Positions 20-64,000 of a DNA stretch of 64,000 bases are shown one piece after another (positions within the stretch are counted from its first letter, which is position 1; the number at the start of each line of letters is the position of its first letter). This DNA is from an uncultured Anaerolineales bacterium (GTDB lineage Bacteria; Chloroflexota; Anaerolineae; UBA7937). Made by a program: the position numbers and the translations under genes. The notes under the pieces were generated by a model, which ran no database searches, was not told where the DNA came from, and saw only the letters and a program-made list of their open reading frames with translations. The stretch lies in assembly GCA_964383935.1 (NCBI GenBank), contig CAYLIE010000006.1, forward strand, positions 35,377-99,376. Reading direction: 5' to 3'.

Positions 20-115
20 AGGGTTGTAGGGGAGGGGCTTGCCTGTCCTGAGCGCAGCGAAGGGTCCCCTCCCGTTTCACCCCTCCTTTTCGGGAGGCCA
101 CCAGGGCCTCCCCTA
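20..115. repeat. Partial copy of the GC-rich modular intergenic repeat family (gcttgcctgtcctgagcgc module; 8-bp inverted repeats gggagggg/cccctccc at 30-37 and 66-73; second stem gggaggcc/ggcctccc at 92-112)
   Basis: Shares the cctgtcct-agcgc module with the copy at 56134-56160 and its inverted form at 7623-7652. Seen directly in sequence. Confidence 0.3.
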
Positions 116-156
116 CATTGGTGTCAGGAGCTACATCTTGACAGTACCAAACAGAT

Positions 157-1140
157 CTACGCTATATGGTCTCGCTTCTCCCGATTGCATGTGGCGCACA
201 GGAGTTGGACATTCTTCTCAGTGTTGCTACCGCCCTTTGAGATGGGAATGATGTGGTCGAACTCTAAATCCTCAGTACTCCCGCACTTCACGCATCGACC
301 ACCATCTCTTTCCCAGACGAGCAGTCGGACCTCCTCCGGAATCCTTTCCCGCCCCCCTTGCTCAAGGGCTTCTTCGGCCGCAGCCTTGGCCTTGCCAAGC
401 CTCTCAAACTTCCTCTGCTCCCGCCTTCCTTTCTCCCATATCAAAAGCCTGGCCTCTTCTTCAGAGTACCCTGTGCTTGCCCAGAACTTATCACGGTGCC
501 ACCAGAACTTACCCTCCAGCTTGTCCTGCTTTTGGGGGAACCAAGTGCATAGGTAGATAGGTTCCTCTCTCTGGAACGCCTGGGCCTTCTCGAACACGCT
601 GGGCTTCATGTATACATGCATATAAACGCCTGAGTAGCCCCAACGATCTTTGTCCGCCAGGCGGCTATCCTCGGGGTGGAATGAAATGCAGTGCCAGCGC
701 TTCTCCGCCGTCCTCTTGCGCTGCAGAGCCTTTCTCAATTTTGTTTCGACAGTAGAGAGGGTGTCTTCGACAGTAGAGAGGTCGCTCTCCAGGGTAGCCA
801 CTTCACGCTCCAGCTCTTCGCGTCGCCGTTCACTGCTGAAAAGAGACCGCAAGCCCACCCGAGACTGGGCCAGCTTTGCTCGGGCTTTTGTGAGCTTCCA
901 TTCCAGGTCTTGCTTCTTCCTCTCTAGGGCTGACTTCTGCCACTCAAAGGTCTGCGGCGTCCTAATGGGAGCAGTGATGCGTCTCGCTGCTCTTTTGTCC
1001 AGCTCCTTCGCGACAAATTGGCCACGCGCTTCATACAGCCACCAACGACGGTGCCCACCAGACTTCATTTCAGACTGTTCCAGAGATTGGAGATCCATCG
1101 TGCCAATCGTGCCTTTGGTCAGCCTAATCGCCCTCTGCAC
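157..1140 (-). CDS. HNH (His-Me finger) endonuclease-domain protein with long coiled-coil N-terminus
   Basis: C-terminal CVKCGS...EFDHIIPISKGGSNTEKNVQLLCATCNREK is a classic HNH motif with Cys pairs. The N-terminal ~200 aa is charged coiled-coil containing an in-frame 21-bp tandem repeat (STVEDTL/STVETKL). Confidence 0.7.
   Translation of the reverse strand: MQRAIRLTKGTIGTMDLQSLEQSEMKSGGHRRWWLYEARGQFVAKELDKRAARRITAPIRTPQTFEWQKSALERKKQDLEWKLTKARAKLAQSRVGLRSLFSSERRREELEREVATLESDLSTVEDTLSTVETKLRKALQRKRTAEKRWHCISFHPEDSRLADKDRWGYSGVYMHVYMKPSVFEKAQAFQREEPIYLCTWFPQKQDKLEGKFWWHRDKFWASTGYSEEEARLLIWEKGRREQRKFERLGKAKAAAEEALEQGGRERIPEEVRLLVWERDGGRCVKCGSTEDLEFDHIIPISKGGSNTEKNVQLLCATCNREKRDHIA
746..787. 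repeat. In-frame imperfect 21-bp tandem duplication inside the HNH gene (tcgacagtagagag x2, spaced 7 bp)
   Basis: Exact 14-mer at 746-759 and 767-780. Confidence 0.85.
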
Positions 1141-2176: not shown

Positions 2177-3007
2177 TTATACCTCCAGACTCAGAACCCC
2201 ATCTACAAAAGGGTAAAAATGATCACAGTTCAGGCAACCCATCGCCTCGCTCCTCCTAGCCAGGGAGGAGCCACAGCGGGGACAGAGGAGAACCTCCAAG
2301 AGGTTCTGGGGAGACTCCCTTCCAGGCGAACCTCTCTTCTTGGCCCATACCAGGTCATAACACTCCTGCCACCGGTTAACCTGTACATCCTCCATGGAAA
2401 GAGCGCCCAATAGGTCCTTGAGTTCGCTCCTCCCAAAAGTTCGGCCGGGGAAGAAGAGCGCATCGCGACCCACTCGATTGCTGAGCAAGAGAACCCCGCC
2501 CGGGGCCAAGATTCGCGCCATCTCCCCCAAGGCCAATCTCTGGTGGGGTATGAACTCCAGGGCCTCGATACAGGCAACGGCGGCGAAAGAACCGTCGGCG
2601 AAGGGCAACCGAGAGGCATCCTTCCAGATCAAAGATGCCCGGCCCCCATACCCCTGGACCTTCTCCCTCGCCACCCGAAGCATCGGCAACGAGGTGTCCA
2701 AGCCCACTAGCCAGCCCTCGAACCCTGGACGGCGCACGATAGCCAGAAGCATCCTCCCCGTGCCCGTGGCCACATCGAGGATGGAGGGACACTTCCAACC
2801 TCTAAGCCTCCTCTCCAAAGGTATAGCCAGGTGCCAGGCGTCCTCGGCCACGTCGAACTTCTTGATCTCATCGTAACTCTTGGCCCCCCAGTCGTAAAGA
2901 AACCGCACTACCCTAGGGCCGAGATAGACACCCTCGGTGAGGACGAGCAACCAGTATGCCAGACCAGCTAGAAGGAGCGCCAGAGCTGCCCAGATCGCGA
3001 ACCTCAT
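2177..3007 (-). CDS. Class I SAM-dependent methyltransferase (type 11-like) with N-terminal TM helix and C-terminal CxxC...CxxC zinc ribbon
   Basis: [11 protein letters not shown] (motif I) and APGGVLLLS (post I/II). Start chosen at the MRFAIW ATG 3005-3007, which overlaps the upstream stop (ATGA coupling). The longer ORF to 3076 overlaps the neighbouring gene. Confidence 0.65.
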
Positions 3008-3900
3008 ATCGCCACCGCCAGGGCCCCAATCATCAGCCCCATCAGGGCGAAGAATTGAGTGCGCCGCAGATACCAATCGCGTCGCTTGAAAACCGGTTGA
3101 AGCAGCATCTGAGGCAGGAGCAGAAGGCCCGCGACCCCCGCAAGTATCGGCTCCTTGGTCAGAACCAGAATCGCTACCCCAAAGATCTGCACCAGATTGA
3201 GGACTCTCACCCCCCTATGTCGCTCGCCTCCATCTATGCTTTGGAAAGCGTACAGGACTCCGGTATAGATTAATGTCCAAAGGATCGCCTCACCATATCG
3301 CTGGATCGTTACTGGAGGGATGAGGGGCCTGAAAGCCAAATAACCCACAAGCCAAGCCACCCCCCCTGCATAAGAGGCTCGAAGCAGGCGACTCGGCTCT
3401 CTGCCATCATGTAAACGTAGAGATTCCCAGGCCACCAAAATCAAAGCCACGGCTATGAGCATGACTACGCTCCGGCCCAAAAGGATAGCCAGAGCAAAGG
3501 CCAAAGGAAGGGCGAAGGCTAGGCCAGCCAGAGGGGCTTCGAGCCTGGGCCAGAACCAAGAAAGCCGCTCTTCCACCCAACGGAAAAGACGATCAGCCAG
3601 GGAGCCAGGCAGAGTATAGGGTGGCGGGGAGAGCCTGGCCTTTGACCTTTCACTGAGAGAGATGGGGTTGGAGGGGGACGCTATGATAGATACCTCCCGC
3701 CAGATGGTCCCCAGGAGCGGATCTCCTAGAAAGAGGGACAAAAGAAGAACCAGAACCGTCCTCCCGTTGAACTCCAGCCTCCCGGAGGCTAAACCACCAC
3801 AGAGAACCGCCCAGGCTGGTCCCAGCCAAATGCGAGGCTTGGCCCACCAAGCCCCCAGGCCCAATAGAACGCTCTCTATCCCCCGCCCGTCTGCTTCCAA
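3004..3900 (-). CDS. Polytopic integral membrane protein, function unknown
   Basis: Multiple hydrophobic helices; no catalytic motif recognised. Confidence 0.45.
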   Translation of the reverse strand: MEADGRGIESVLLGLGAWWAKPRIWLGPAWAVLCGGLASGRLEFNGRTVLVLLLSLFLGDPLLGTIWREVSIIASPSNPISLSERSKARLSPPPYTLPGSLADRLFRWVEERLSWFWPRLEAPLAGLAFALPLAFALAILLGRSVVMLIAVALILVAWESLRLHDGREPSRLLRASYAGGVAWLVGYLAFRPLIPPVTIQRYGEAILWTLIYTGVLYAFQSIDGGERHRGVRVLNLVQIFGVAILVLTKEPILAGVAGLLLLPQMLLQPVFKRRDWYLRRTQFFALMGLMIGALAVAI

Positions 3901-3959: not shown

Positions 3960-4110
3960 AAACATGCGTTTCCTTCGGGACGCTGAGTCCCCTGGGCTGC
4001 CCGTGCTGTACGTAAAGTATCCCTCTGGGAAGCGCAGGGTGCGAAGCAAAGATCCCAGGACAGGATCTGAAGACTCAGGACGAAGTGCAGGACCGCAGGG
4101 CGGGAGACTG
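3960..4110. repeat. Intergenic repeat copy A; 50-bp core at 3999-4048 is identical to 56068-56117
   Basis: gcccgtgctgtacgtaaagtatccctctgggaagcgcagggtgcgaagca is present twice in the window (exact) and once more in inverted, diverged form at 63704-63728. Confidence 0.6.
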
Positions 4111-4120
4111 AAGATCTGAA

Positions 4121-4151
4121 CCAAAAAAGGGAGAGGGGTAACCCCTCTCCC
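4121..4151 (-). terminator. Rho-independent terminator for the 4173..5273 gene
   Basis: 10-bp perfect stem gggagagggg/cccctctccc with 3-nt loop, followed on the minus strand by TTTTTTGG. Confidence 0.65.
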
Positions 4152-4172
4152 TTAAACGGCGCTTGGGGCAGG

Positions 4173-6564: not shown

Positions 6565-6593
6565 ATGGGCCATAATCACTTCCCTATCCCTAG

Positions 6594-6624
6594 GAGATCC
6601 CTGTGGGACGGGATCCTGTAAGGA
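6594..6624. repeat. ATCCCTGTGGGA core with flanking gatccc/gggatc inverted repeats in the ssb 5' UTR
   Basis: Same 12-mer recurs at 7731-7742, with variants at 9463-9474, 4023-4034, 56092-56103 and the complement at 63709-63720. Confidence 0.4.
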
Positions 6625-7041: not shown

Positions 7042-7593
7042 ATGAAGCGTACGAAAGTATCCCTTTGGGAAACGATAACCCTTTGCCAGACCCAAGCAGG
7101 CTGGGTAGGTTTACTCCTCTCTCCTCGAGGGCTACGAGCCCTGGAGTACCCCCGCCCCAGCGCGGAGGAGGCTCTGGCCAACCTCCAGAAGCGTTGGCCC
7201 CAGGCTTCATTTGAAAAGTCGGCTGCCGAGGGGTTGAAGGAGCAGTTGCGGCGGTATTACGCCGGGAAGCCGGTGACCTTCGCGGCGAAACTCGATCTAG
7301 AAGGCTATACCCCTTTTGAACGGCGGGTTTGGGCGGTTACCTCTCGCATCCGCTATGGCCAGACTCGCCCCTACTCCTGGGTGGCGGAAGAGGTAGGCTC
7401 GCCGCGTGCTTATCGGGCCGTGGGCGCGGCCCTGGCCAAGAATCCCATCCCCATCATCATCCCCTGTCACCGTGTGCTTCGAAAAGATGGAAGTCTGGGC
7501 GGCTATGGCGGCGGCCTGGATATGAAGCGCCGCCTCCTGGAGATGGAGGCGAAAGGGGCCCACACCCCTGTGGTGTCAGAAGTTACCTTCTGA
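7042..7593 (+). CDS. ogt: Methylated-DNA-protein-cysteine methyltransferase
   Basis: PCHRV active-site motif in IPIIIPCHRVL. Confidence 0.85.
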   Translation: MKRTKVSLWETITLCQTQAGWVGLLLSPRGLRALEYPRPSAEEALANLQKRWPQASFEKSAAEGLKEQLRRYYAGKPVTFAAKLDLEGYTPFERRVWAVTSRIRYGQTRPYSWVAEEVGSPRAYRAVGAALAKNPIPIIIPCHRVLRKDGSLGGYGGGLDMKRRLLEMEAKGAHTPVVSEVTF

Positions 7594-7619
7594 CACCACT
7601 AGCGTAGCGTCGGTCTGTC

Positions 7620-7745
7620 CCCCGGCCTAGCAAGTACCAGGACAGGCTGGCATCATTAGATCAGAGGCTTCAACCCGACGAGAAGACGTCGCCCTTTTAA
7701 CAATGAGGCTGGCCCCGGATTTTCCTTACAGGATCCCTGTGGGAG
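7620..7745. repeat. Composite intergenic repeat: inverted gccagcctgtcct/ggtacttgc module (7623-7652) plus ATCCCTGTGGGA hairpin (ccccggattt...aaatccgggg stem, 7713-7755)
   Basis: Module is the reverse complement of 56134-56155. The hairpin loop carries the 12-mer core. Confidence 0.4.
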
Positions 7746-9357: not shown

Positions 9358-9424
9358 TATTTGGCCTCACTATTATACTGACACTCTCCCAGCCAAAGCA
9401 AGGAGGTTCTCGGCCGCCTCGCGC

Positions 9425-10741
9425 TCAGGCACTCCCCGCTACGCGGACTTCCTCAAGGATCCCTGCGGGAAATGGATTGGGTTTTCCCCAATCGTAGCGG
9501 TTGACCGATGGTTCGGGCCAGATCGTGGGAAGTTCTCCCACTCGAACCGATACTCCGGTGCTCAAATCGAGCCCTTGGAGATACTTACGGAGAAGATTGA
9601 TAGCGCCATTGACGTCGGCATTGATGACTGCCCCACACTCCGAGCAGACGAGGAGGCCGCGATGAATACGACTGTTTCCATCTCGACAACCGCATGCACT
9701 GCACCTTCGACTGGTGTTCCGTTCGCTCACTTTGACAATTGTGATGCCGCTCAAATTTGCCTTGTAGGCCAGCATCTGAGCGAACCTATCGAAAGGCCAG
9801 GCGTGCAGCTTGAGGTTGCTAGCCCTCCCGTGATTGCGGGCCTCGCCGTTACTTTGCCATCGGATGCCCGAGAGATCGCCAAGAACAATGGTGCCTATAC
9901 CTTTCTCGATACCCATGTTCACAATGTCTCGGGAAATAGCGTGCAGGAACTGCTTCCGTCTCCCGCTTCTTTTCCGTTGCAGCTTCCTTTCACGCTTGGA
10001 TGCCGCTCGCTTTCTAGAGCCAGGCTTCCATCTGCTAGGCTTGCATTTGGCTATCTCCCTTACGAAGTAGTACTCCTGGGCCAAAAGACCTCGACCGCTG
10101 TAGAGGCCAGTGGTATCGTCGCTGTAGGCTATTGCTGCCAGATTGACGATGCCCACATCAATGGCCGCCACGCCTTCGCCTGGGGCTTCGTCAGCGCAGG
10201 GAACATCGCAGACGAGGTGGACTTCCCACCTGCCCTCTCGATGCACCAGCCTGACCAATTTGGGGTTGGAAATATCGGCAACTGGGGGCAGAGCCAGGTC
10301 GAGATAAAGATACTTCTCTCCAATCTCAGCGGTGACCGTCTCCCCCCTGGAAAGGCGGAGTCTAGTTCCTTCCAATTTGAAGCCCGATCTCTTGAAGGTA
10401 ACAGTATTCATCAACACCCGCCCCTTCCGCTTGCAATACCCGGGTGGGCGAGCTCCATAGTTGCCGTTCCTGCGCTGACTGAACCACGACTTATAGGCCT
10501 GCCAGAGCTCTTGGAGGACTGCTTGGGCAGTATGGGAAGGCAGGTGCTTGTACCAGTAGTGGGACTGAACCTCCTCCTGTACTTTGAAGGCATGTGGTAT
10601 TTTGCCTTTTCTTTCCCACACCTGGCGGGAGTGGTAAAGGGCCACGTTCCAGAGTTTGGAGCAGGCAAGACCCACTTTGTCGAGATCCCTCTCAACCTCA
10701 TCCAAGTTCTTGATTTTAGCAATGTAGGTGAGTTGTTGCAT
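9425..10741 (-). CDS. tnpB: TnpB (OrfB) RuvC-like RNA-guided endonuclease of IS200/IS605 family
   Basis: RuvC-I IDVGIVNLAA, zinc finger CSACG...CSECG, RuvC-III ADVNGAINL. Confidence 0.85.
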   Translation of the reverse strand: MQQLTYIAKIKNLDEVERDLDKVGLACSKLWNVALYHSRQVWERKGKIPHAFKVQEEVQSHYWYKHLPSHTAQAVLQELWQAYKSWFSQRRNGNYGARPPGYCKRKGRVLMNTVTFKRSGFKLEGTRLRLSRGETVTAEIGEKYLYLDLALPPVADISNPKLVRLVHREGRWEVHLVCDVPCADEAPGEGVAAIDVGIVNLAAIAYSDDTTGLYSGRGLLAQEYYFVREIAKCKPSRWKPGSRKRAASKRERKLQRKRSGRRKQFLHAISRDIVNMGIEKGIGTIVLGDLSGIRWQSNGEARNHGRASNLKLHAWPFDRFAQMLAYKANLSGITIVKVSERNTSRRCSACGCRDGNSRIHRGLLVCSECGAVINADVNGAINLLRKYLQGLDLSTGVSVRVGELPTIWPEPSVNRYDWGKPNPFPAGILEEVRVAGSA

Positions 10742-10759
10742 AGTTTGCTTTCCTTCGAG

Positions 10760-11164
10760 TTAATGCCCACTTTGGGCCTCGATGTATGCTTGAATAGTCT
10801 TGGTGGAGACATTGCCTGCTGTAGAATAGCAATAGGAGTGCGTCCAGAGGGAAGGGAGCCTCCTCAGGTGTGGGAACTCCTGTCTGAGAAGGCAGGAGCT
10901 TCGCCCCTTGACAGCTCTCACGATCCGGTAAGCGGGTTTCACAGGGTCGTCTCTTAGAAACAGATGAATGTGATCTGGACGAATAGCCAGTTCCAGAATT
11001 TCGCACTTGTTTTCGGCAGCTAGTTGCCGGATGATCTGTTCCAAGGGAGCAGCCACTCGACCCACCGGCACGGCCCTCCGATTTTTGGGACAAAAGATGA
11101 GATGGTAAACAACAAGATGGATATGATGACCGCTATTTTGATATTCCATCTGATATTTCCTCAC
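10760..11164 (-). CDS. tnpA: IS200/IS605 TnpA (Y1 HUH transposase)
   Basis: HIHLVV (HUH) and PDHIHLF motifs; ~134 aa. Confidence 0.85.
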   Translation of the reverse strand: MRKYQMEYQNSGHHIHLVVYHLIFCPKNRRAVPVGRVAAPLEQIIRQLAAENKCEILELAIRPDHIHLFLRDDPVKPAYRIVRAVKGRSSCLLRQEFPHLRRLPSLWTHSYCYSTAGNVSTKTIQAYIEAQSGH

Positions 11165-11372
11165 ACTGTTTTCTAGTATAGCACATTAGTTCTAAGAATG
11201 CAAGTCGATTTATGCGCCCTTACCTCCTAGCTTGGAGCCAGGAGCTTGCGGGCGCGGAAAGCGATCAAATCGGCTGGGGAGGAAGGGCGTTATATATGCA
11301 AACTCTCATGCTAACTGGACAAGGAGGCAGAAATCGAGTATTATTTAATCAGTTGGCAACCAGGGAGGTCTC

Positions 11373-11743: not shown

Positions 11744-12082
11744 ATGGCCGGTAATGAGATGCAAGTGGGGCTCCTTTGGTTCGACGATGACCCGAAGAAA
11801 GAGGTCTCTCTAAAGGTTAAGGAGGCCGCTGGGCGGTACTTTGAGAAGTTCGGCCAGCGGCCCAATCTCTGCTACGTGAGCCCCGCCACCCTTCCCCTCC
11901 CGCGGGATCCTCTAGGGACGGAAGGCGTCCATCTCGATCCTTCGGATGGTGAACATCCTCAGGATGTGAACCATGGCCTGCGTGTCTTGTCCAGCCCCCT
12001 CATCCTCCCCGACCACTTCTGGGTGGGAGAGAGCCATCAATCCAAAGAGACTGGAAAAAGGGGGTCTCAAAGTCGAAGTTGA
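11744..12082 (+). CDS. Hypothetical protein (start uncertain; annotated ATG at 11726 overlaps the -10 box)
   Basis: ORF only; a possible alternative frame at the 3' end hints at a sequencing or frameshift issue. Confidence 0.3.
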   Translation: MAGNEMQVGLLWFDDDPKKEVSLKVKEAAGRYFEKFGQRPNLCYVSPATLPLPRDPLGTEGVHLDPSDGEHPQDVNHGLRVLSSPLILPDHFWVGESHQSKETGKRGSQSRS

Positions 12083-19913: not shown

Positions 19914-20939
19914 CTAGTAATGTATCACTACCAAGGTACCCGGGTTGCTAGCGCTGGAGTATATCACGTTATAGCCGGGAGGTAAAGTGGGGGTGGTCCA
20001 GTCGAAGAGCCACTGGGCATCGGAGACGGCTAGGTTCACACAGCCAAAACTCATAGGGGTGCCGAAGTTGTTATGCCAGTAGGTGCCATGGATAGCGTAG
20101 CCGCTATAAAAAAACATCACATAGGGAACATCAGGGAGATAGTAATAGCCAGAGTAGGACATATCCTTATAACGGTACTTACGCTGGATGCGATAGCGGC
20201 CGGTGACGGTGGGGCGCTCGGCTGTCCCTGTGGAGACGACGGCCGAGTATACGGCCCGGTCTCCCTCATAGGCCACCAGCTTCTGGGTGGTGAGGTTAAC
20301 GTCGACCCATCTCTCCCCTCCGCCACTCTCTGGAGAGGGCTCCTGGCCGCTCTCCTCCGATATTATCAGCCTCTGGCCCACGTAGATAAAGGAGGGGTTG
20401 GCTAAGTTGTTGGCCCTGGTCAGGGCCCAGACGGTAGTATTGTACCGTCTGGCTATACGGATGAGGATCTCCCCAGGCTGCACCAGATGGACACGAGACT
20501 CGCCTGATGGCTCCAGTGATGGCGGCGACGACGAGGGGTCTAGGCGCAGTCTCTGCCCTGCCCAGATGAAGTTGGGGTTGGAGAGCCCGTTGAGCCAGGC
20601 CAAAGTGTTAGCCGTGGTCCCGTGCCTCCGGGCTATGGAAAAGATGGTATCGCCCCGCCGCACAGTGTAGACCGTAGTCGGCGGAGAGCCCTGGGTAGGG
20701 ATAGTGAGCCTCTGGCCTGTATAGACCCAGTTGGGGTTGGCGATGCCGTTGGCGCTGGTTATCGCCTCTACGCTGGTGCCATACCTCCTAGCGATGGAAT
20801 ATATCGTCTCCCCTCGCTGAACGATATGTATGACCGGATCAACCCCCGGAGGCGCAGCCCAAACAGAGGTTACAGCAAAGGATAGAATAACAACCGAGGC
20901 AACGAAGGAACAGAATCTTGTATGCGACATCATATGCAC
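19914..20939 (-). CDS. Secreted 3xLysM + L,D-transpeptidase (YkuD) protein
   Basis: Three LysM repeats; C-terminal HGT...SFGCVNL catalytic motif. Confidence 0.8.
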   Translation of the reverse strand: MHMMSHTRFCSFVASVVILSFAVTSVWAAPPGVDPVIHIVQRGETIYSIARRYGTSVEAITSANGIANPNWVYTGQRLTIPTQGSPPTTVYTVRRGDTIFSIARRHGTTANTLAWLNGLSNPNFIWAGQRLRLDPSSSPPSLEPSGESRVHLVQPGEILIRIARRYNTTVWALTRANNLANPSFIYVGQRLIISEESGQEPSPESGGGERWVDVNLTTQKLVAYEGDRAVYSAVVSTGTAERPTVTGRYRIQRKYRYKDMSYSGYYYLPDVPYVMFFYSGYAIHGTYWHNNFGTPMSFGCVNLAVSDAQWLFDWTTPTLPPGYNVIYSSASNPGTLVVIHY

Positions 20940-20983
20940 ATAATGGTCGATTTCTAAACGCAGGTCAATAGGAAATTAGTCCC

Positions 20984-22381
20984 CTATTCCGGTATGGCCC
21001 TTGCCGTCCACTCTGTGGGATCCACACCTATCTCCCCGATCCGCGTCTCCCAATGGAGGTGAGCCCCCGTGGCTAGCCCGGTGGAGCCCACGTACCCTAT
21101 TAAGGCGCCTCTCTCCACCTCCTGCCCTGGAGCCACCGCTATCCCCGAGAGGTGGAAGTAGCCGGTATGGACCCCCAGGCCGTGATCGATGATCACCGTC
21201 TTCCCTCGCACGGTTAACTCTTCGGCCAAGGCGATACGGCCGGAGTTGGCGGCCACCACGGGAGCGCCTTCTGGAGCGGCGTAGTCCACACCCATGTGGT
21301 AACTAGCCACCGGGCCACCTTCATAAGAGCGGCGAGTGCCGAAGAGGGAGGAGACCTCCCCCTCGACGGGCACAAGAAACCGCCCTCGCCACAATTTGGA
21401 GGGGGTCACCTGAACGAAGAGAGCCTTCACCCGTGCCCATTCCGCTTGCACCAGTTCCGGATCTAGGAGCCCTTCCCGCTCAGCAGGTAGATCTATATAT
21501 TGAATGGGGAACTCAGCCGCCGTCACCAGCACAAAACCTGAGACCTCCACAGCCCGGCCCTCGTCATCGGTAGCCACTATAGACCAAGAGTGGGCTCCCG
21601 GCTCGCTCCAAGGGGGAAATCCGGCCAGAGCCCAGTACTCCCCTTCTGCCCCAGCAAAGACGAGGCTCCAGCCATCTATGCTCCCCGCCAGGCTCACCTC
21701 CTCCCCGGCCCGTACTTTGAGGAGAAGAGTATGTCCCTGAGTCACCCGGGATGGTACGAACTCTACCGCCGTAATAGGGGCAGGCAGCGTTGCCGACTGA
21801 GTGGGGATGATGAGTCGCTGACCGGGGTAGATGAGGGAGGGGTTAGCCATATCGTTGGCCACGGCCAGAGCCCAGACGGTGGTGCCATAGAGACGGGCGA
21901 TCTGAGAGAGATACTCACCGGGGCGCACAACGTGCACCTGGGCCTGGGTAGGCAACTCCGATGGCTGTTGGACGGCAGAGGGGATGATGAGTCGTTGACC
22001 GGGGTAGATGAGAGAGGGAGTAGAGATGTCGTTAGCCTGGGCTATGGCCGAAACTGTGGTCCCGAAGCGAACGGCTATGCCGCTGAGGGTGTCGCCTGGT
22101 TGCACAACGTAACTCTCTTCAGGAGCGACCGACCCCTGAGTGGGGATGGTGAGCCGCTGGCCCACATATATGAGGTTAGGGTTAGCGATGCCATTGGCCT
22201 GGACGATGACATCCACCGTCGTTCCGTAGCGAGCGGCGATGACCGAGAGGGTCTCTCCCCGCTCTACCACGTGGATGATCGTCTCCTCCGCACCAGGAGC
22301 AGCCTCCAGAGAGTGAGCGGAGAATAGAAAGAAGATGACGAGAAGGCAAAGAAACGCTCTCCGACCCCTAGTTAGCATCAT
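20984..22381 (-). CDS. Secreted 3xLysM + M23 (LytM) metallopeptidase
   Basis: HMGVDYAAP...HLHWE M23 motifs. Confidence 0.8.
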   Translation of the reverse strand: MMLTRGRRAFLCLLVIFFLFSAHSLEAAPGAEETIIHVVERGETLSVIAARYGTTVDVIVQANGIANPNLIYVGQRLTIPTQGSVAPEESYVVQPGDTLSGIAVRFGTTVSAIAQANDISTPSLIYPGQRLIIPSAVQQPSELPTQAQVHVVRPGEYLSQIARLYGTTVWALAVANDMANPSLIYPGQRLIIPTQSATLPAPITAVEFVPSRVTQGHTLLLKVRAGEEVSLAGSIDGWSLVFAGAEGEYWALAGFPPWSEPGAHSWSIVATDDEGRAVEVSGFVLVTAAEFPIQYIDLPAEREGLLDPELVQAEWARVKALFVQVTPSKLWRGRFLVPVEGEVSSLFGTRRSYEGGPVASYHMGVDYAAPEGAPVVAANSGRIALAEELTVRGKTVIIDHGLGVHTGYFHLSGIAVAPGQEVERGALIGYVGSTGLATGAHLHWETRIGEIGVDPTEWTARAIPE

Positions 22382-34049: not shown

Positions 34050-37000
34050 TTGCCCCGCCTATCTAAGTCTGTTATTCTTAAGGGGATGGAAAGGCTGGGA
34101 GCACAGTACCGAATAGCCCTCCTTCTCGTGGGGCTCATCGTACTCGTTAGTATGGCTGGAGCCTTTCTTCTGCTGCCTGCATCCAGCCCTCTGAGGGGGC
34201 ACCTCTGGAAAGTCGTCCTCGTCCCAGCAACCTATATCCTCGTCCTCTATATGCTCACGCGGCACCCCGGTGTGCGGCGACTTCGCTACCTCGTCTCCAC
34301 CTCCGCGGTCCTCGCCGTCGCCGTTCTCTGCTACGACTTCAGTGAGGATGTTCCCGCGATCCTTCTCCTCTATCTCTTCCCCATCGCCACCGCTGTTCTC
34401 TTCTGGGACACGGCGACGGCCATCTTCACGGCAGTCCTGTCCACCTTGAGCCACACCACAGTGACGGCCCTTACCGCTCCCCTAACGGGCAACCTCGTAT
34501 GGAACCTCGGCCTTGAGGGAATCAGCTTTTTTCTAATGGCGGTCCTGGCTGGAATTGGTGTGGAGAAATGGAGGCTTCGAACTGAGCAACTTTCTGCCCT
34601 CAATGCCACCGCGGAGGCGGCCAGTCGTTCCTTAGATCTGGAGACTTTAGAGCAAGAGGTTTTGCAGACCATCCAGACGACGATGGATGTCGATGTGGGA
34701 GGGGTTGCCCTGATTGATGAGAAGACCCAGATGGTGGTGCCCAGCACCTTTTTCGGAATCTCTCAGGAAGCCATGGATGTCCTTGCCCCCACTCAGAAGG
34801 TGGGGGAGCCTCTCATAGGGTTGGTAGCCAGCACGAGCGAGGCCGTAGTTGTTGAAGACTTACCTAGAGAGGCGAGAAAGGTTAGCCAGGAAGTTGCGGA
34901 TTTGGTGGAGAAAGAGGGGTTGAAAGTCTTCGCTTTCTTGCCCATTAGGTCAAAGGGTAGAATCATCGGTGTCCTGGCTGCGGGGAGGAAGAGCGGCCTC
35001 AAATTCACGCCCTCAGAGGTGGAACTGTTGGCTTCCATCGGCAACCAGATCGGTATAGCCATCGAGAACGCGCGGCTCTATCAAGAGACCAAGCGAAGAC
35101 TGGATGAGATGCTAGCCTTACAGCGAACCTCCTGGGACATCACAGCACAGTTGGACCTTCCACAGCTCCTGCGATCAATCGTCGAGCGGGCTGCTGCCCT
35201 GCTAGGAGTGAAAGGGGGAGGGATATACGTCTATCATCCCGAAGTGGAAGAGCTTGAACTGGCAGTCAGCTACAACCTGGGACGGGATCTCACCGGGACC
35301 AGACTCAAGTTAGGCGAAGGCTTGTCTGGGAAGGTTGCTCAAACTGGAGAGCCTATCATCGTGGAAGACTACCGCTCTTGGGAGGGGAAGTCGGAGAAGT
35401 ACGCCCATAACCATTTCACCTCTGTGCTCGGGGTGCCTCTCAAATGGAAGGGAGAGATCCTCGGGGTACTTAACGCTACGGACGTGGCGAGGGAGGGACA
35501 AAGACCTTTCGATGAAAACGATGTTCGACTCCTGAGCATCTTCGCTGACCAGGCAGCCATCGGCATCGAGAACGCTCGTCTGTATCAGGCAGAACGGGCC
35601 AAACGGGAAGAGGCGGATACCCTGCGTCAGGCAGCCCAAACGCTGAGCGCCACCTTAGACCTACAAGAGGTCTTCAAGTCGATTCTGAGCGAATTGCAAA
35701 AGGTGGTGCCTTATGACAGTGCTTCGGTCCAACTCCTCAAGGGAGATCGCCTGGAGATCATCGGCGGCCACGGTTTTCCCAACCTCGACGAACTGCTCGG
35801 CATCTCCTTCCCCGTGGAGGACGACAACCCCAACCGCCAGGTAATGACCAGCCGAGCCCCCTTCATCGTGGAGGACGTCCCGACCATCTACAGCGCCTTC
35901 CGCGAGGAGCCTCATGCCCAGGCCGGCATCCGAGCCTGGCTAGGGGTACCGCTCTTGTTCGGAGATCGTATGATCGGGATGATCGCCCTAGACAAGAAAG
36001 TACCAGGTTTTTACACCGAGGAACACGCCCGCTTGGCGCTGGCCTTTGCTGCCCAGGCAGCCATCGCCATTGAAAACGCCCGCCTCTATGAGGAGACACA
36101 GAAACGGTTGGCGGAGACCGCACTCCTCCACAAGGCGGCGGAGGTCATCAACTCCACCCTCGATCTGCAAGAGGTGCTTCAGCGTGTGGTGGAGGAACTC
36201 TCTCAGACTTTCGGCTACCACCTAGTGGACATCTACCTCCTAGAGGAAGAGGGCTTGAGGCTCCAAGCCCAAGCGGGCTACGATGGCGAGACTATCATCG
36301 ACTTCATACCCCTAGAACGTGGAGTCATAGGTCGCGTAGCCCGGACTGGACAACCGGCTTTCATCCCCGACGTGACCAAGAACTCCGACTACATCGCTGC
36401 CTATCCCGATATCACCAGCGAAATCTGCGTGCCCATCAAGAGTGGTGAGACCATCCTCGGCATCCTCAACGTAGAGTGCCATAACAAGAGACCCTTGACG
36501 GAAGATGACCTGCAACTCCTGGTTACCCTCAGCAGCCACATCGCCGTAGCCATCGAGAACGCCCGGTTCTATGAGGAAACTAAGCGTCGGATGTCTGAGC
36601 TGGCTGCCTTGCAGGAGGTCAGTCTACAGGTCACCTCCTCCCTCGACCTGGCTAAAGTCCTGGAATCGATTGCCGAAAGCGCCTTGAAGTTAGTGGAGGC
36701 CACAGATGCACATATCTTCTTCTACGATGAAGAAAGGGGAGAATTCAGATTCGGCACCGCTGTGTGGGACAGCAGAGAGAAGGGAGGAGTGGCAGCGACG
36801 CCACGGGAGGACGGTCTCACCGCCACGGTAGCACAGCAGGGGGAACCCCTGGTCATCAACGATGCCGAAACCCATCCTCTATTCACCTCGCAAGAGGCTC
36901 GCGAATGGAAAGTGAAAGCCATAGCCGGCTTCCCCTTGAAGAGGGCCAGAAAGGTTCTCGGCGTCCTCAACGTCGCTTTCCTTGAGCCTCATACCTTTGA

Positions 37001-55949: not shown

Positions 55950-56055
55950 CCTCGCTCCCTTCTAAGCCCATACCATCAATCGCAGCCTCATCCGGGGTAA
56001 ACTGAGACCCCATATTAAGGCAAACACAAATTCTTAATTTCCAGTGGCGTCAGCC

Positions 56056-56203
56056 CGCCCCCTGGCCCGCCCGTGCTGTACGTAAAGTATCCCTCTGGGA
56101 AGCGCAGGGTGCGAAGCATTGATGCCAGGACGGGCCGGTACTTGCCAGCCTGTCCTAGCGCGCCTGCCCCAAGGCGTACCAGGCCGGGGTGACAGGCCAG
56201 GGG
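56056..56203. repeat. Intergenic repeat copy B, bounded by imperfect inverted repeats gccccctggcc/ggccaggggc; contains the 50-bp core at 56068-56117
   Basis: Core identical to 3999-4048; module 56134-56155 shared with 63821-63842 and inverted at 7623-7652. Confidence 0.55.
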
Positions 56204-56306
56204 CCAGGGATGTTACCATCTGACGCTTTTGGCTAGCACCGGAATAAGGTGAAGCAGGGAGAGAGCGCCTCGTCACACTCTCCCCCAAAATCACTCGTCA
56301 CTCATT

Positions 56307-60970: not shown

Positions 60971-63688
60971 CTACGAAAGTCCCTCCAACTTCTCCAAGAG
61001 CCTCTCTTTCTCCTCCTCAAATCTGGCCAGTTTCTCTCGCTCCCGCTCTTGCACATCTAGAGGGGCCTTGGCCCTGAAATTCTCATTGTCTAGCAGGGCC
61101 TTCGCCCTGGCGATTTCCCCATCCAGTCGCAAAATCTGTTTGCTCAGAAGCTCTCGTTTCTCCTCTCTATCTATTTCCATCTTCAAACTGGTAGAGAATG
61201 GACCGGTTACGATGGGAATGCCCTCAATGGGCTTTGCTAGCGATATCACCCAATCCTGCTCTTGCACTCCGGCTAACCTCTCGAAAGTTGCTCTCTCTCC
61301 CATAAATAACTCGTGGCTTATCACCGTGTGCGCCAGGGGCACGACTCCAGGCTCCAACCTCTCCTCCGCTTTCCAGTTGCGGATGGCCCGGATATGCTCC
61401 CAGAGGGTCTCCTGTGCTCGCTCCACCTCCTCGTCTATCGGTCCCGCTTCCGGCCAGGGAGCGATTATGAGGCTCTCCCCCTCATGGGGCAGATGTTGCC
61501 ATATCTCTTCGGTGACGAAGGGCATGAAGGGGTGCAAGAGCCGCAAAGTGCGCTCTAACACGTAGACTAGAACGTAGCGCGTCCTCTCCTTCGCCCTCTC
61601 GTCATCGCCGTAGAGGGCCACCTTACTGGCCTCGATGTACCAATCGCAATACTCCCCCCAAAGGAACTCATATATCTGACGCCCCGCCTCACCGTACTGA
61701 TACCCCTCCATGAGGCGGTTCACCTCACTTATGAGACGGTTATGCCGGCTGAGGATCCAACGATCAGTCGGGGTAAGATCCCACTTCCAGGAATCGCCTT
61801 CAGGCAATTCGTACTCCTCAGGTAGATTGCCGGTCACGAAGCGAGCGGCGTTCCATATTTTATTGGCGAAGTTGCGGCTAGCCTCCACTTGCTGCAGAGA
61901 GAGCCTCATATCGTTACCCGGAGTGCTGCCGGTCATGAGGGTGAAGCGCAAGGCGTCGGTGCCGTACTCGTCCATCACCTCCAAGGGATCGATAACGTTG
62001 CCCTTGGAGCGGCTCATCTTCTCACCACCTTCATCCCTGACCAGGCCATGCAGATAGACGATATGGAAGGGGATATCGCCCACACACTCCAACCCCATCA
62101 TGATCATCCGGGCCACCCAGAAGAAGAGGATATCATAGGCTGTCTCCATCACCGTCGTGGGGTAGAAATAGCGCAGATCCTCGGTATCATCGGGCCAGCC
62201 CAAGGTCGAGAAGGGCCATAGCGCCGAGGAGAACCAGGTGTCCAGGATATCGGGATCCTGGCGAAGGTTCGTCCCCTTGCAACTTGTACACTCGCGGGGT
62301 TCATCAGTAGAGACGATAACCTCTTGACAATCGTTGCAGTACCAGACGGGGATGCGGTGCCCCCACCAGAGTTGCCGGGAGATACACCAGTCGCGGATAT
62401 TCTCTAGCCAGTTGTAGTAGACCTTGGTGAACCGCTCAGGGATGATCTCGATCCGTCCCTTGCGCACCACATCCAAGGCCTGCTCGGCCAAGGGCTTTAT
62501 CTTGATGAACCACTGCTCGGAGATGAGGGGCTCGATCATGGTATGGCAACGCTGACATCGCCCCGGCGCATGAAGATGATCTTCGACCTTGATCAACAGC
62601 CCTTCCTTCCCCAAGTCAGCCAGCAACCGCTCCCTAGCCTCATACCGATCCAACCCGGCGTAGGGGCCTGCCTCCTCGCTCATGGTGCCATCTGGGTTCA
62701 TCGCGTTAACGATAGGTAGATCATGGCGCTGGCCGATTTCGTAGTCGTTGGGATCATGGCCTGGGGTGATCTTCACGGCTCCAGTGCCGAACTCCATATC
62801 CACCGCTCGGTCAGCGATGATGGGGATCCTGCGACCCAAGAGAGGTAAGATAGCCGTCTTACCCACTAACCGATTGTAGCGCTCATCATTGGGATTGACG
62901 GCCACCGCCGTATCCCCCAGGATCGTCTCCGGCCTGGTTGTAGCCACCTCGATATACCCGCCCTTCCCTCGTCCCTCGGGATCCCTGCGGGAGGATCCTT
63001 TACGGACGGCCAGCGGGTAGCGCACCCAGTAGAGTTTGCCTCGCTCCTCCTCGTGCTCCACCTCCAAGTCTGAGATAGCCGTCCCACAGCGAGAGCACCA
63101 ATTGACGAGATACTTGCCCCGATAGATCAAACCTTCTTCATAGAGGCGGACAAAGGCCATTCGGACCGCTCGGGAAAGGCCTTCGTCCATGGTGAAGCGT
63201 TCCCTCGTCCAGTCGCAGGAGGCCCCCAGCCGTCGGAGTTGCTGGTTTATGTAACCTCCGTGTCTCTCCTTCCAGGCCCAGCCCAACTTGACAAACCACT
63301 CCCTGCCCAGATCATGGCGAGCCAGCGGTCGACCATCCGAGGGCACCGGATACCCTATCTCCCTGAGAAGATCGTCCAGTTCTCGCTCTTCCAACCCTCT
63401 CTCAATCACATTGTGAGTAGCGATACTAGCGTGGTCGCTACCTGGCAGCCAGAGGGTAGGCTCGCCCCGCATCCGGTGCCAACGGATCATGATGTCCTGG
63501 ATGGTTATAACGAGGGCATGGCCGATATGCAGTTCCCCCGTGATATTGGAAGGAGGCATGGAGATTACAAAGGGCCTCCGCTCCCGGTCGACCTGGGGGG
63601 TCAAATAGCCCCTGCTTTCCCAAAACCTGTAGAGCCGCCCCTCAGTCGTTTTAGGATCGTAGGTCTTAGACATCTTCTGCTTAGCCAT
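60971..63688 (-). CDS. valS: Valine--tRNA ligase
   Basis: HIGH (ELHIGHAL), KMSKS, C-terminal coiled coil; 905 aa. Confidence 0.95.
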   Translation of the reverse strand: MAKQKMSKTYDPKTTEGRLYRFWESRGYLTPQVDRERRPFVISMPPSNITGELHIGHALVITIQDIMIRWHRMRGEPTLWLPGSDHASIATHNVIERGLEERELDDLLREIGYPVPSDGRPLARHDLGREWFVKLGWAWKERHGGYINQQLRRLGASCDWTRERFTMDEGLSRAVRMAFVRLYEEGLIYRGKYLVNWCSRCGTAISDLEVEHEEERGKLYWVRYPLAVRKGSSRRDPEGRGKGGYIEVATTRPETILGDTAVAVNPNDERYNRLVGKTAILPLLGRRIPIIADRAVDMEFGTGAVKITPGHDPNDYEIGQRHDLPIVNAMNPDGTMSEEAGPYAGLDRYEARERLLADLGKEGLLIKVEDHLHAPGRCQRCHTMIEPLISEQWFIKIKPLAEQALDVVRKGRIEIIPERFTKVYYNWLENIRDWCISRQLWWGHRIPVWYCNDCQEVIVSTDEPRECTSCKGTNLRQDPDILDTWFSSALWPFSTLGWPDDTEDLRYFYPTTVMETAYDILFFWVARMIMMGLECVGDIPFHIVYLHGLVRDEGGEKMSRSKGNVIDPLEVMDEYGTDALRFTLMTGSTPGNDMRLSLQQVEASRNFANKIWNAARFVTGNLPEEYELPEGDSWKWDLTPTDRWILSRHNRLISEVNRLMEGYQYGEAGRQIYEFLWGEYCDWYIEASKVALYGDDERAKERTRYVLVYVLERTLRLLHPFMPFVTEEIWQHLPHEGESLIIAPWPEAGPIDEEVERAQETLWEHIRAIRNWKAEERLEPGVVPLAHTVISHELFMGERATFERLAGVQEQDWVISLAKPIEGIPIVTGPFSTSLKMEIDREEKRELLSKQILRLDGEIARAKALLDNENFRAKAPLDVQEREREKLARFEEEKERLLEKLEGLS

Positions 63689-63703
63689 TTGAACCTCCCT
63701 TCC

Positions 63704-63873
63704 CTTCCCACAGGGATACTTTACGTACGGGACAGGTTGTGCAAGGGCATCATCGGCCCCTGGCCTGTCATCCCTTCCCCCGGGATCCCATAAGGATAAG
63801 GAAGACCCTGTCGGCCTGCCCCGGTACTTGTCAGCCCGTCCTGCCTGCCCTGGCGATGGCAGGCCAGGGGCAT
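63704..63873. repeat. Intergenic repeat copy C, between the valS T-box terminator and the valS RBS; inverted core 63704-63728; 12-bp inverted repeats gcccctggcctg/caggccaggggc at 63756 and 63860
   Basis: Core cttcccacagggatactttacgtac is the reverse complement of the A/B core with one mismatch. Confidence 0.5.
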
Positions 63874-63896
63874 CAGCGGGCCAGAGGGCAGGCTCC

Positions 63897-64000
63897 TATA
63901 AAAACCCCTTCCATCTCCAGGACGGAAGGGGCCGCGGTACCACCTCGATTCCGGCTTAAACCGGCACTCTTCGCTATAACGGGCTCACCCGAGAGAACTT
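63897..64000 (-). promoter_or_regulatory. T-box riboswitch leader of valS (3' part; specifier region probably beyond the window edge)
   Basis: Minus-strand aatcgaGGTGGTACCGCGG T-box motif (63932-63950), followed by an 11-bp terminator stem ccccttccgtc/gatggaagggg plus TTTTTATA (63897-63931). Confidence 0.6.

Follow-up and report, generated by a model that had tools for sequence, protein, structure and literature searches.

The window analysed here is a 64,000-nt stretch of contig CAYLIE010000006.1 (assembly GCA_964383935.1, positions 35,377 to 99,376, forward strand) from an uncultured Anaerolineales bacterium, and the subject of this report is a set of short palindromic repeats at three of its intergenic loci, called element A, element B and region C. 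Two minus-strand signals flanked element A: the intrinsic terminator of a bactofilin-like gene at 4127-4153 and, at 3960-3931, a strong promoter-like site, TTGGCT-18-TATAAT, for a membrane gene (3004..3900). Element B separated two minus-strand genes, rph and one of the band-7/SPFH type. Region C as a whole (63689-63900) lay inside the 5' leader of valS, between its ATG (63688) and the T-box part. A first-pass annotation of the window had placed all copies 5' of minus-strand genes; this held for A, B and C, while a further block at 7623-7652 was found where ogt and murJ converge, in the gap that separates their 3' ends. Loci and contigs compared with the window carry the prefix L. The following features were assigned at the three loci and in the valS gene.

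3965..4105, plus strand: element A, a 141-nt composite insertion, lying between the bactofilin-gene terminator and the -35 (TTGGCT) of the promoter of gene 3004..3900
3989..4064, plus strand: K-core module, copy A, holding the exact 50-nt core; also in L005, L024, L038 and L048
4009..4030, plus strand: M1 unit nested in K-core A (TACGTAAAGTA+TCCCTCTGGGA)
56044..56226, plus strand: element B, a shell hairpin (GTGGCGTCAG ... GATGTTACCATCTGACGC) opened by nested modules, in the band-7 to rph spacer
56059..56134, plus strand: K-core module, copy B (76-nt repeat D8)
56079..56100, plus strand: M1 unit nested in K-core B
56147..56202, plus strand: module 5 (GCCTGCCCCAAGGCGTACCAGGCCGGGGTGACAGGCCAGGG), with separate occurrences elsewhere
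62965..63006, minus strand: two nested 21-nt M4 units in the valS coding sequence; their product, VRKGSSRRDPEGRG, belongs to a surface loop that precedes the ATTRPET motif
63706..63727, minus strand: solo M1 unit directly upstream of the valS ribosome-binding site
63758..63892, minus strand: region C mosaic, a 135-nt insertion in the leader of valS past the T-box terminator, comprising two copies of module 3, one of module 2 and an M4-like unit
63776..63796: M4-like unit in the C mosaic (TCCTTATGGGATCCCGGGGGA, minus strand); its L045 counterpart is TCCTTACAGGATCCCGAGGGA
63915..64000, minus strand: 3' part of the valS T-box leader (Rfam RF00230, E = 2.4e-7), 5'-truncated by the window end

The repeated sequences exist and lie far above chance level. 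A 76-nt direct repeat (3989-4064 and 56059-56134, 92% identity, family D8 of the repeat search) enclosed the exact 50-mer of the first-pass annotation, the second copy of which runs from 56069 to 56118 and not from 56068 to 56117. Elements A and B had only 76 nt in common. The 25-mer GTACGTAAAGTATCCCTCTGGGAAG was present at 4008-4032 (plus), 56078-56102 (plus) and 63704-63728 (minus), the last being the inverted core with one mismatch as originally described; none of 100 shuffles matched it, giving 0 matches expected by chance. The second module, module 2 (CCGGTACTTGCCAGCCTGTCCT), was likewise real, with its exact copy at 56135-56156 (plus) instead of 56134-56155, and with two mismatches in the copy at 63821-63842 (plus), whose orientation with respect to M1 is the reverse of that in element B. 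Module 2 was also found in L005 and L024. At 7623-7652 both halves of module 2 were read as two sub-blocks, inverted and permuted, in agreement with the first description. The bounding inverted repeats of the gcccctggcc type were also there, as TGACAGGCCAGGGGCC at 56190-56205 (plus), 63755-63770 (minus) and, in degenerate form with two mismatches, 63857-63872. Module 5 showed 93% identity over 56 nt to L036:3609-3664 and 27/27 matches to L040. Only the 'partial' copy at 36-54 had to be removed from the family: it is the loop of a repetitive extragenic palindrome (REP) doublet with a GTAG tag at 26-116.

Inside these modules, smaller units were recognised. M1 is a 22-nt unit, TACGTAAAGTA+TCCCTGTGGGA, made of two mini-hairpins, TAC-GTAAA-GTA and TCCC-TGT-GGGA. 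When all copies were aligned on the motif, similarity ended sharply at both sides of (G)TACGTAAAGTATCCCTGTGGGAA and the flanks were unrelated. M4 is a sister family of 21-22 nt with the pattern TCC-N4-5-GGA + TCC(C)-N3-GGGA, centred on GGATCC; its loops were more variable than those of M1 and its stem bases were kept. M4 sites in the window were 6580-6624, 7723-7744, 9450-9470, 11898-11918, 62965-63006 and 63776-63796. In total, nine small units were counted in the 64-kb window against about 0.7 expected. The units and related blocks outside the three loci were the following.

6580..6624: pair of M4-type units that follow a TTGATA-17-TATAAT promoter and belong to the 5' leader of ssb
7050..7070, plus strand: old M1-like unit (TACGAAAGTATCCCTTTGGGA), the fourth M1 copy, which makes up ogt codons 3-10
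7570..7599: hairpin of the shell family, GTGGTGTCAGAAGTTACCTTCTGACACCAC, which overlaps the stop codon of ogt
7620..7652, minus strand: module-2-like block with permuted sub-blocks, from direct sequence reading, with a match in L024
7713..7755: M4 unit 7723-7744 within an outer stem, CCCCGGATTT/AAATCCGGGG; exact 22-mer at six loci
9450..9470: M4-like unit at the tnpB 3' end of an IS605-type insertion sequence (IS)

Intact shell hairpins (GTGGCGTCAGATGTTACCATCTGACGCCAC) were observed in L025, L034 and L035, and a version filled with 27 nt at L042:9515-9570. Comparing the 7570-7599 hairpin with GTGGCGTCAGATGTTACCATCTGACGCCAC, both stem differences were compensated. Similarly, the valS M4 variant of L045, TCC-GTAAA-GGA, differed from the first half of M1 solely by a compensated stem change (C..G to A..T). 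Such changes are suggestive of hairpins that matter, each being effectively one event and not statistical evidence.

Syntenic loci were obtained with valS homologues of 86-91% identity (L042, which is UBA3082, L045, L047 and L048) and with homologues of the membrane protein (L049, L050 and L051). The orthologous spacers in L049, L050 and L051 were without element A and read terminator-ggttcagg/tgttttggctgg-promoter, the flanks matching the window base for base on either side of the stroke. At the B site, after 'tgctagccaGaa', a short hairpin, GCGTCAGATGGTAACATCCCTGG...CTGACGCCAC, was found with a 47-nt filling in L045 and a 20-nt filling in L048; the shell filling in the window was about 150 nt, and L042 and L047 had no hairpin element at this site. 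The content of B was different in every relative compared, and a near-identical B-like composite stood in an unrelated neighbourhood of UBA3082 (L005/L038). By these alignments, B arose by accretion, its modules having gone into an older shell hairpin that two relatives carry at the same site. Such repeats fragment short-read assemblies; one Logan contig of this genome, built from short reads (SRR14802574), breaks off inside the M1 unit of element B (L041:1-25).

In region C, the T-box terminator hairpin was placed at about 63905-63934, and the full leader was conserved in L042, L045, L047 and L048. The distance from this terminator to the ATG was about 45 nt in L042, L047 and L048 (gccgatgatgccctcgcacaacctgtgcc ggggaggtt..ATG). 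In L045 a mosaic of about 125 nt was inserted after 'ataggag', and the window holds a variant of it. The window alone had an extra M1 between 'cctgtccc' and the valS ribosome-binding site, absent at the exact point in L045, L042, L047 and L048. The T-box-controlled leader of valS shows a 160-nt expansion. As judged by these comparisons, element A, the C mosaic and M1 were shown to be discrete blocks missing at the same site in close relatives. The first-pass annotation had named conserved orthologous untranslated regions (UTRs) as the contrary outcome; the relatives showed insertions and accretions instead.

The valS coding sequence itself gave a graded series. Alignment of the valyl-tRNA synthetase (ValRS) proteins at the hotspot showed YPLV-EG-GYIEV in four homologues, seven additional residues in five, 14 in the window and 21 in UBA3082. 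The corresponding numbers of M4 units were zero in L047 and L048, one in L045 (10683-10703), two in the window and three in L042 (10670-10730). Each 21-nt unit was set in the centre of the preceding one, from TCCGTAAAGGATCCCGAGGGA to TCCCGCAGGGATCCCGAGGGA to TCCCAAAGGGATCCCGTGGGA, and the newer units had loop bases unlike those of their neighbours. Overall, the data give a clean natural series of filled and empty sites for elements of only 21-25 nt, including zero to three in-frame units in a loop of an aminoacyl-tRNA synthetase.

An exact-pattern scan of the genome collection detected the 24-mer only in the Anaerolineae/Chloroflexi metagenome-assembled genomes (MAGs) UBA3082, UBA7937, W31_47 and b3.sp3_bin.49. 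The M1 motif was present in seven genome-collection loci from four MAGs and in 33 metagenome contigs, with unrelated flanks. Its positions included the point directly after a tRNA gene and before the tRNA terminator (L011, L029 and L039), a point 10 nt upstream of the ATG of the pyruvate:ferredoxin oxidoreductase (POR) gamma-subunit gene (L008 group), and points upstream of ftsY, dehydrogenase and dehydratase genes. Orientation relative to neighbouring genes was mixed, about nine independent contexts being antisense and about six sense. A 25-nt M1 block was present in L002 and absent from L018, and a second nearby M1 in L002 had decayed by a 5-nt deletion; another decayed copy was a truncation in L048. 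Between L010 and L014, the difference was a 22-nt M1, TACGTAAAGTATCCCTGTGGGA, inside the loop of an M4 mini-hairpin (TCCCA^CAGGGA). Together with the valS leader (window and L045), these are three independent filled and empty pairs, which delimit M1 to some 22 nt, inserted without target duplication. None of the filled and empty pairs showed a duplication beyond 1-2 nt. One copy with long flanking repeats was seen in L006:6100-6180 (same as L009), where M1 and 16 nt stand between 17-nt direct repeats (cggtaacattWtcattt); it is the sole copy resembling a long target duplication, and the direct repeat may be a local tandem duplication.

An IS of the IS5/IS1182 type with 16-nt terminal inverted repeats (L033:1266-2706) carried M1 at the start of its gene for a DDE transposase, and the transposase showed an in-frame M4 interruption (..VSLQDPVGKG..). 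M1 was considered as the end of this IS and rejected, as the terminal repeats are at 1266-1281 and 2691-2706 and M1 is internal. A 14-nt exact inverted match to M1 (CAGGGATACTTTAC) was also noticed in L033 at 2441-2454, in the conserved C-terminal coding region.

From these results, we consider the loci to be probably patches of non-coding, non-autonomous, hairpin-forming short interspersed repeats that were recently and repeatedly inserted into one another. That the elements are mobile, nested selfish repeats appears likely. The claim of modular, MITE- or REP-like elements that move or recombine thus stood, with filled and empty blocks and the same modules in unrelated flanks. As regards likeness to miniature inverted-repeat transposable elements (MITEs), the mobility was borne out; classical target-site duplications were absent, and the unit, at 21-25 nt, was much smaller than assumed.

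In this interpretation, the double mini-hairpins of 21-22 nt are the smallest building blocks. The larger palindromic modules (K-core, shell, modules 2, 3 and 5) carry small units or are split by them, and the outcome is mosaics of 135-185 nt, similar to bacterial interspersed mosaic elements (BIMEs). Insertion was shown to be often into the loop or centre of an existing unit. The sites that tolerate units were shown to include terminator-promoter gaps, 5' leaders, a tRNA trailer, another IS and coding sequence, the units there being 7-codon (21-nt) blocks. We infer that a host- or IS-encoded enzyme would copy the units in trans, the moving form being single-stranded hairpin DNA; an HUH/Y1 tyrosine transposase of the RAYT (REP-associated tyrosine transposase) or IS200 type would be the most plausible candidate. 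Enzymes of the HUH/Y1 class suggest themselves, since small hairpins are their substrates and their action causes no duplication; that a Y1 enzyme is indeed responsible for the movement is a tentative and rather doubtful assignment. Nothing found points to a host function; any effect on the length of the valS leader, on promoter spacing or on the loop in ValRS would be incidental.

Several results weigh against this interpretation. No transposase was linked to M1, M4 or the K-core, the only REP-flanked Y1 gene seen having repeats of the GTAG family on its sides, and the ends of the IS605-type element in the window were not repeated anywhere in the sequences compared. The ValRS unit counts (L045 one, window two, L042 three) did not track valS identity (91%, 89%), so that precise loss or recurrent gain at one hotspot is required. 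Some M4 steps (16 nt, ssb leader, GGGATCC-flanked) resembled slippage or unequal exchange rather than transposition. Several M1 and M4 copies were 10-35 nt upstream of start codons (valS, the POR gene and ssb), a placement that a regulatory role could explain as well as an insertion preference. M1 copies were gathered by exact pattern, and their uniformity is partly ascertainment. The choice between insertion and precise deletion was settled by parsimony over four to five genomes, and the copy counts, which bear on total number and strand bias, span the window, MAG loci and contigs rather than a complete genome.

A regulatory origin would make M1 and M4 functional cassettes (portable promoter, operator or 5'-UTR element), in which the mini-hairpin and the -10-like hexamers, TAAAGT (forward) and TACTTT (reverse), would influence the neighbouring gene, with dispersal through selection for regulation. 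Forward M1 did stand 10-16 nt upstream of the ATG, just before the ribosome-binding site, at valS and the POR gamma-subunit gene, reverse M1 32-130 nt upstream of several genes, and M4 just before the ribosome-binding site of ssb and other genes; the 22-mer was also identical across species. However, no conserved -35 was observed in the M1 flanks of about 25 independent copies inspected, and promoter scans, for a sigma-70 -35/-10 pair at 16-18-nt spacing, returned nothing at the M1 copies. Element A is upstream of, and antisense to, the good TTGGCT-18-TATAAT promoter. An M1 promoter at valS would bypass T-box control, and four relatives are without M1 there. Copies between tRNA and terminator, in coding sequence and in an IS also speak against cassettes, as do the mixed orientation and the unrelated functions of the neighbouring genes. 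A promoter as the general explanation was rejected on the missing -35 and the mixed orientation, and we regard regulatory cassettes of any kind as unlikely. The motif ACAGGGAU in reverse M1 and M4 resembles, probably by chance, the CsrA consensus from SELEX (systematic evolution of ligands by exponential enrichment); the idea of a CsrA site was dropped, the GGA being in a stem and the orientation mixed. Very unlikely is the reading of A and B as small structured RNA genes, such as one for a GGA-rich protein sponge of the RsmZ type encoded on the plus strand. Both folds were more stable than shuffles (z = -3.1 for A and z = -3.1 for B), as any palindromic repeat would be. The stretch 4050-4100 has several AGGA motifs, and the AGGA-rich segment 4050-4154 (plus) gave a weak PrrB/RsmZ match (E = 0.13), which at 15.8 bits is below the gathering score of 44 and is probably a chance match. 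Rfam searches gave no match at gathering score in the whole window, and none for B when A, B and C were searched at E <= 1; among known RNA families, the T-box next to C was the sole real Rfam match. Moreover, A is absent at three orthologous loci, B and C are variable, the 4127-4153 hairpin is a terminator for the minus strand only, and the two elements share just the 76 nt. The structured-RNA alternative of the first-pass annotation was thus not supported, with no Rfam family, mixed orientation and disparate sites. No tRNA or transfer-messenger RNA was found in the window, and by inspection no regular repeat-spacer arrays of the CRISPR (clustered regularly interspaced short palindromic repeats) kind were present around the copies.

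Growth in the manner of minisatellites would be another origin for the small units, without transposition: GGGATCC/GGGA microhomologies would let them arise locally through slippage during replication, a switch of template or unequal exchange. The 16-nt step in the ssb leader between GGGATCC direct repeats agrees with this, and so do the ValRS units, all at one hotspot with junction repeats of 6-7 nt, and the lack of a target duplication or dedicated transposase among the results. Slippage cannot, however, put an identical 22-nt M1 into unrelated sequence (valS leader, L002), nor bring in the 141-nt composite, in which a 76-nt core shares 92% identity with a copy 52 kb away, and the new ValRS units do not repeat the loop bases of the units next to them. 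Local origin is therefore improbable as the whole explanation; slippage or unequal exchange may account for some of the differences in M4 length. Nested mobile repeats remain our preferred interpretation.

Compared with known systems, the behaviour is most like that of the small dispersed repeats (SDRs) of cyanobacteria for the 22-nt units, and that of BIME/REP-type mosaics for the patches. REPs and their doublets (REPINs) are mobilised by RAYTs of the Y1/HUH class and include GTAG- and CGTC-tagged superfamilies (Di Nocera et al. 2013, PMC3733652; Bertels and Rainey 2011, PMC3116915). GTAG REPs have been reported in Chloroflexi (Thermomicrobium), and REPs inside genes are also on record (Di Nocera et al., PMC3733652). 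Like REP/REPINs, the repeats in the window are palindromes in the range of 20-40 nt that mostly lie between genes, often in clusters and at times within a gene, and that show no target duplication; M1 and M4 (21-22 nt, two mini-hairpins) are short imperfect palindromes of the REP kind. A genuine GTAG doublet (26-116) and a REP-flanked Y1 gene (L042) also occur in this lineage. In contrast, M1 starts with (G)TACG and M4 with TCC, without a GTAG or CGTC tag (a CGTC in the shell is paired); each has two mini-hairpins of 10-11 nt where REPs have a single stem of 8-15 bp; and M1 copies are singletons and not inverted doublets. No RAYT gene flanked by M1, M4 or K-core was found in about 440 kb of sequence, and a cognate gene may lie elsewhere. 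The tag, the doublet arrangement and the flanking of a RAYT gene are thus three points on which the units fall outside the RAYT-REP family.

The SDRs of heterocyst-forming cyanobacteria, described by Elhai and colleagues in 2008, are reportedly discrete insertions of about 21-27 nt without target duplication, nested in each other and in larger MITE-like repeats. We know of no resolved mechanism for their mobilisation. The units in the window were likewise inserted as blocks of 22-25 nt without target duplication, nested in an M4 loop, the K-core and an IS; they differ in phylum and probably in sequence, and the double mini-hairpin and the in-frame 21-nt stacking in a housekeeping gene, both documented here, may set them apart as well. 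BIMEs of E. coli consist of Y and Z REPs with defined linker motifs and bind integration host factor (IHF), gyrase and DNA polymerase I. As in BIMEs, A, B and C are intergenic mosaics of palindromic units and short motifs in varied order and orientation, whereas the mosaics here arise demonstrably by nested insertion. Rickettsia palindromic elements (RPEs), roughly 100-150 bp long, are similar in being in-frame in coding genes and tolerated in surface loops; the units here are 21 nt and stack. Two of these families, RPE-4 and RPE-6, are classed as CGTC REPs (PMC3733652). MITEs and the palindrome-associated transposable elements (PATEs) derived from IS200/IS605 resemble the present repeats in being non-autonomous and structured, with composite elements having inverted-repeat ends, and differ in that no target-site duplication was seen here and no likeness to the ends of the window IS605 or to the IS5-like terminal repeats of L033. 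A PATE origin was rejected, as the IS605 ends had no other copies.

We found no paper with the motif and none describing REPs or MITEs in Anaerolineae. The elements are of a known kind, and their Anaerolineae families had not been described before in the literature found. A more far-reaching proposal, which we think has a small chance of being right, is that M1 and M4 form a distinct class of ultra-small mobile DNA of 21-22 nt, for which the double mini-hairpin would suffice as substrate in both recognition and transfer. Insertion would favour hairpin loops, leave no target duplication and be the work of an enzyme so far linked to no repeat family, either a Y1 enzyme of untagged REPs or one unrelated to RAYTs. 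If this were true, the 21-nt M4 would also generate 7-residue loop insertions in essential proteins such as ValRS. Several recently active families and candidate Y1 enzymes occur in the lineage, which makes the copying of tiny units testable. For annotation, patches of this type in this Anaerolineae lineage are not to be called small RNAs, riboswitch extensions or promoters.

Other parts of the window showed related contexts. The first 10 codons of ogt (7042-7071, MKRTKVSLWE) are encoded by the M1-like unit; they were kept in L049 and L051, and L050 had another N-terminus. The ogt-murJ spacer was unrelated in L049, L050 and L051. The ssb leader increased stepwise in size, L050 being smaller than L051, and L051 smaller than L049, which equals the window.

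A complete insertion sequence of the IS200/IS605 type adjoined murJ (9358-11300, minus strand). Its genes were tnpA (10760-11164, Y1_Tnp, E = 8e-33) and tnpB (9425-10741, OrfB_IS605 with a Cas12f-like TNB). The M4-like unit at 9450-9470 sits at the tnpB 3' end, where the omega RNA/reRNA (right-end RNA) scaffold would be expected.

The GTAG-tagged repeats form a separate family, represented in the window by one feature.

26..116, plus strand: GTAG-tagged REP doublet, REPIN-like (GTAGGGGNGGGGCTTGCC... / CGGGAGGCCACNAGGGCCTCCCCTAC)

This doublet was found just downstream of a gene for a 327-aa HNH endonuclease (157..1140). In UBA3082, GTAG REPs (L042:1560-1615 and 2110-2190) flanked a 185-aa Y1_Tnp gene of RAYT-like type (L042:1616-2173), and a further doublet was present at L042:9350-9460. 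The GTAG-flanked Y1_Tnp gene looks like a REPtron in Anaerolineae.

The repeat search also returned families of another nature. At 34050-39149 (plus strand), an open reading frame (ORF) of 1699 aa with eight internal repeats of about 504 nt (family D2) resembled a multi-domain sensor protein. Diverged repeats of about 160-180 nt (families D1 and D5) were present at 20355-22240 in two neighbouring minus-strand ORFs, which probably encode repeat-domain proteins.

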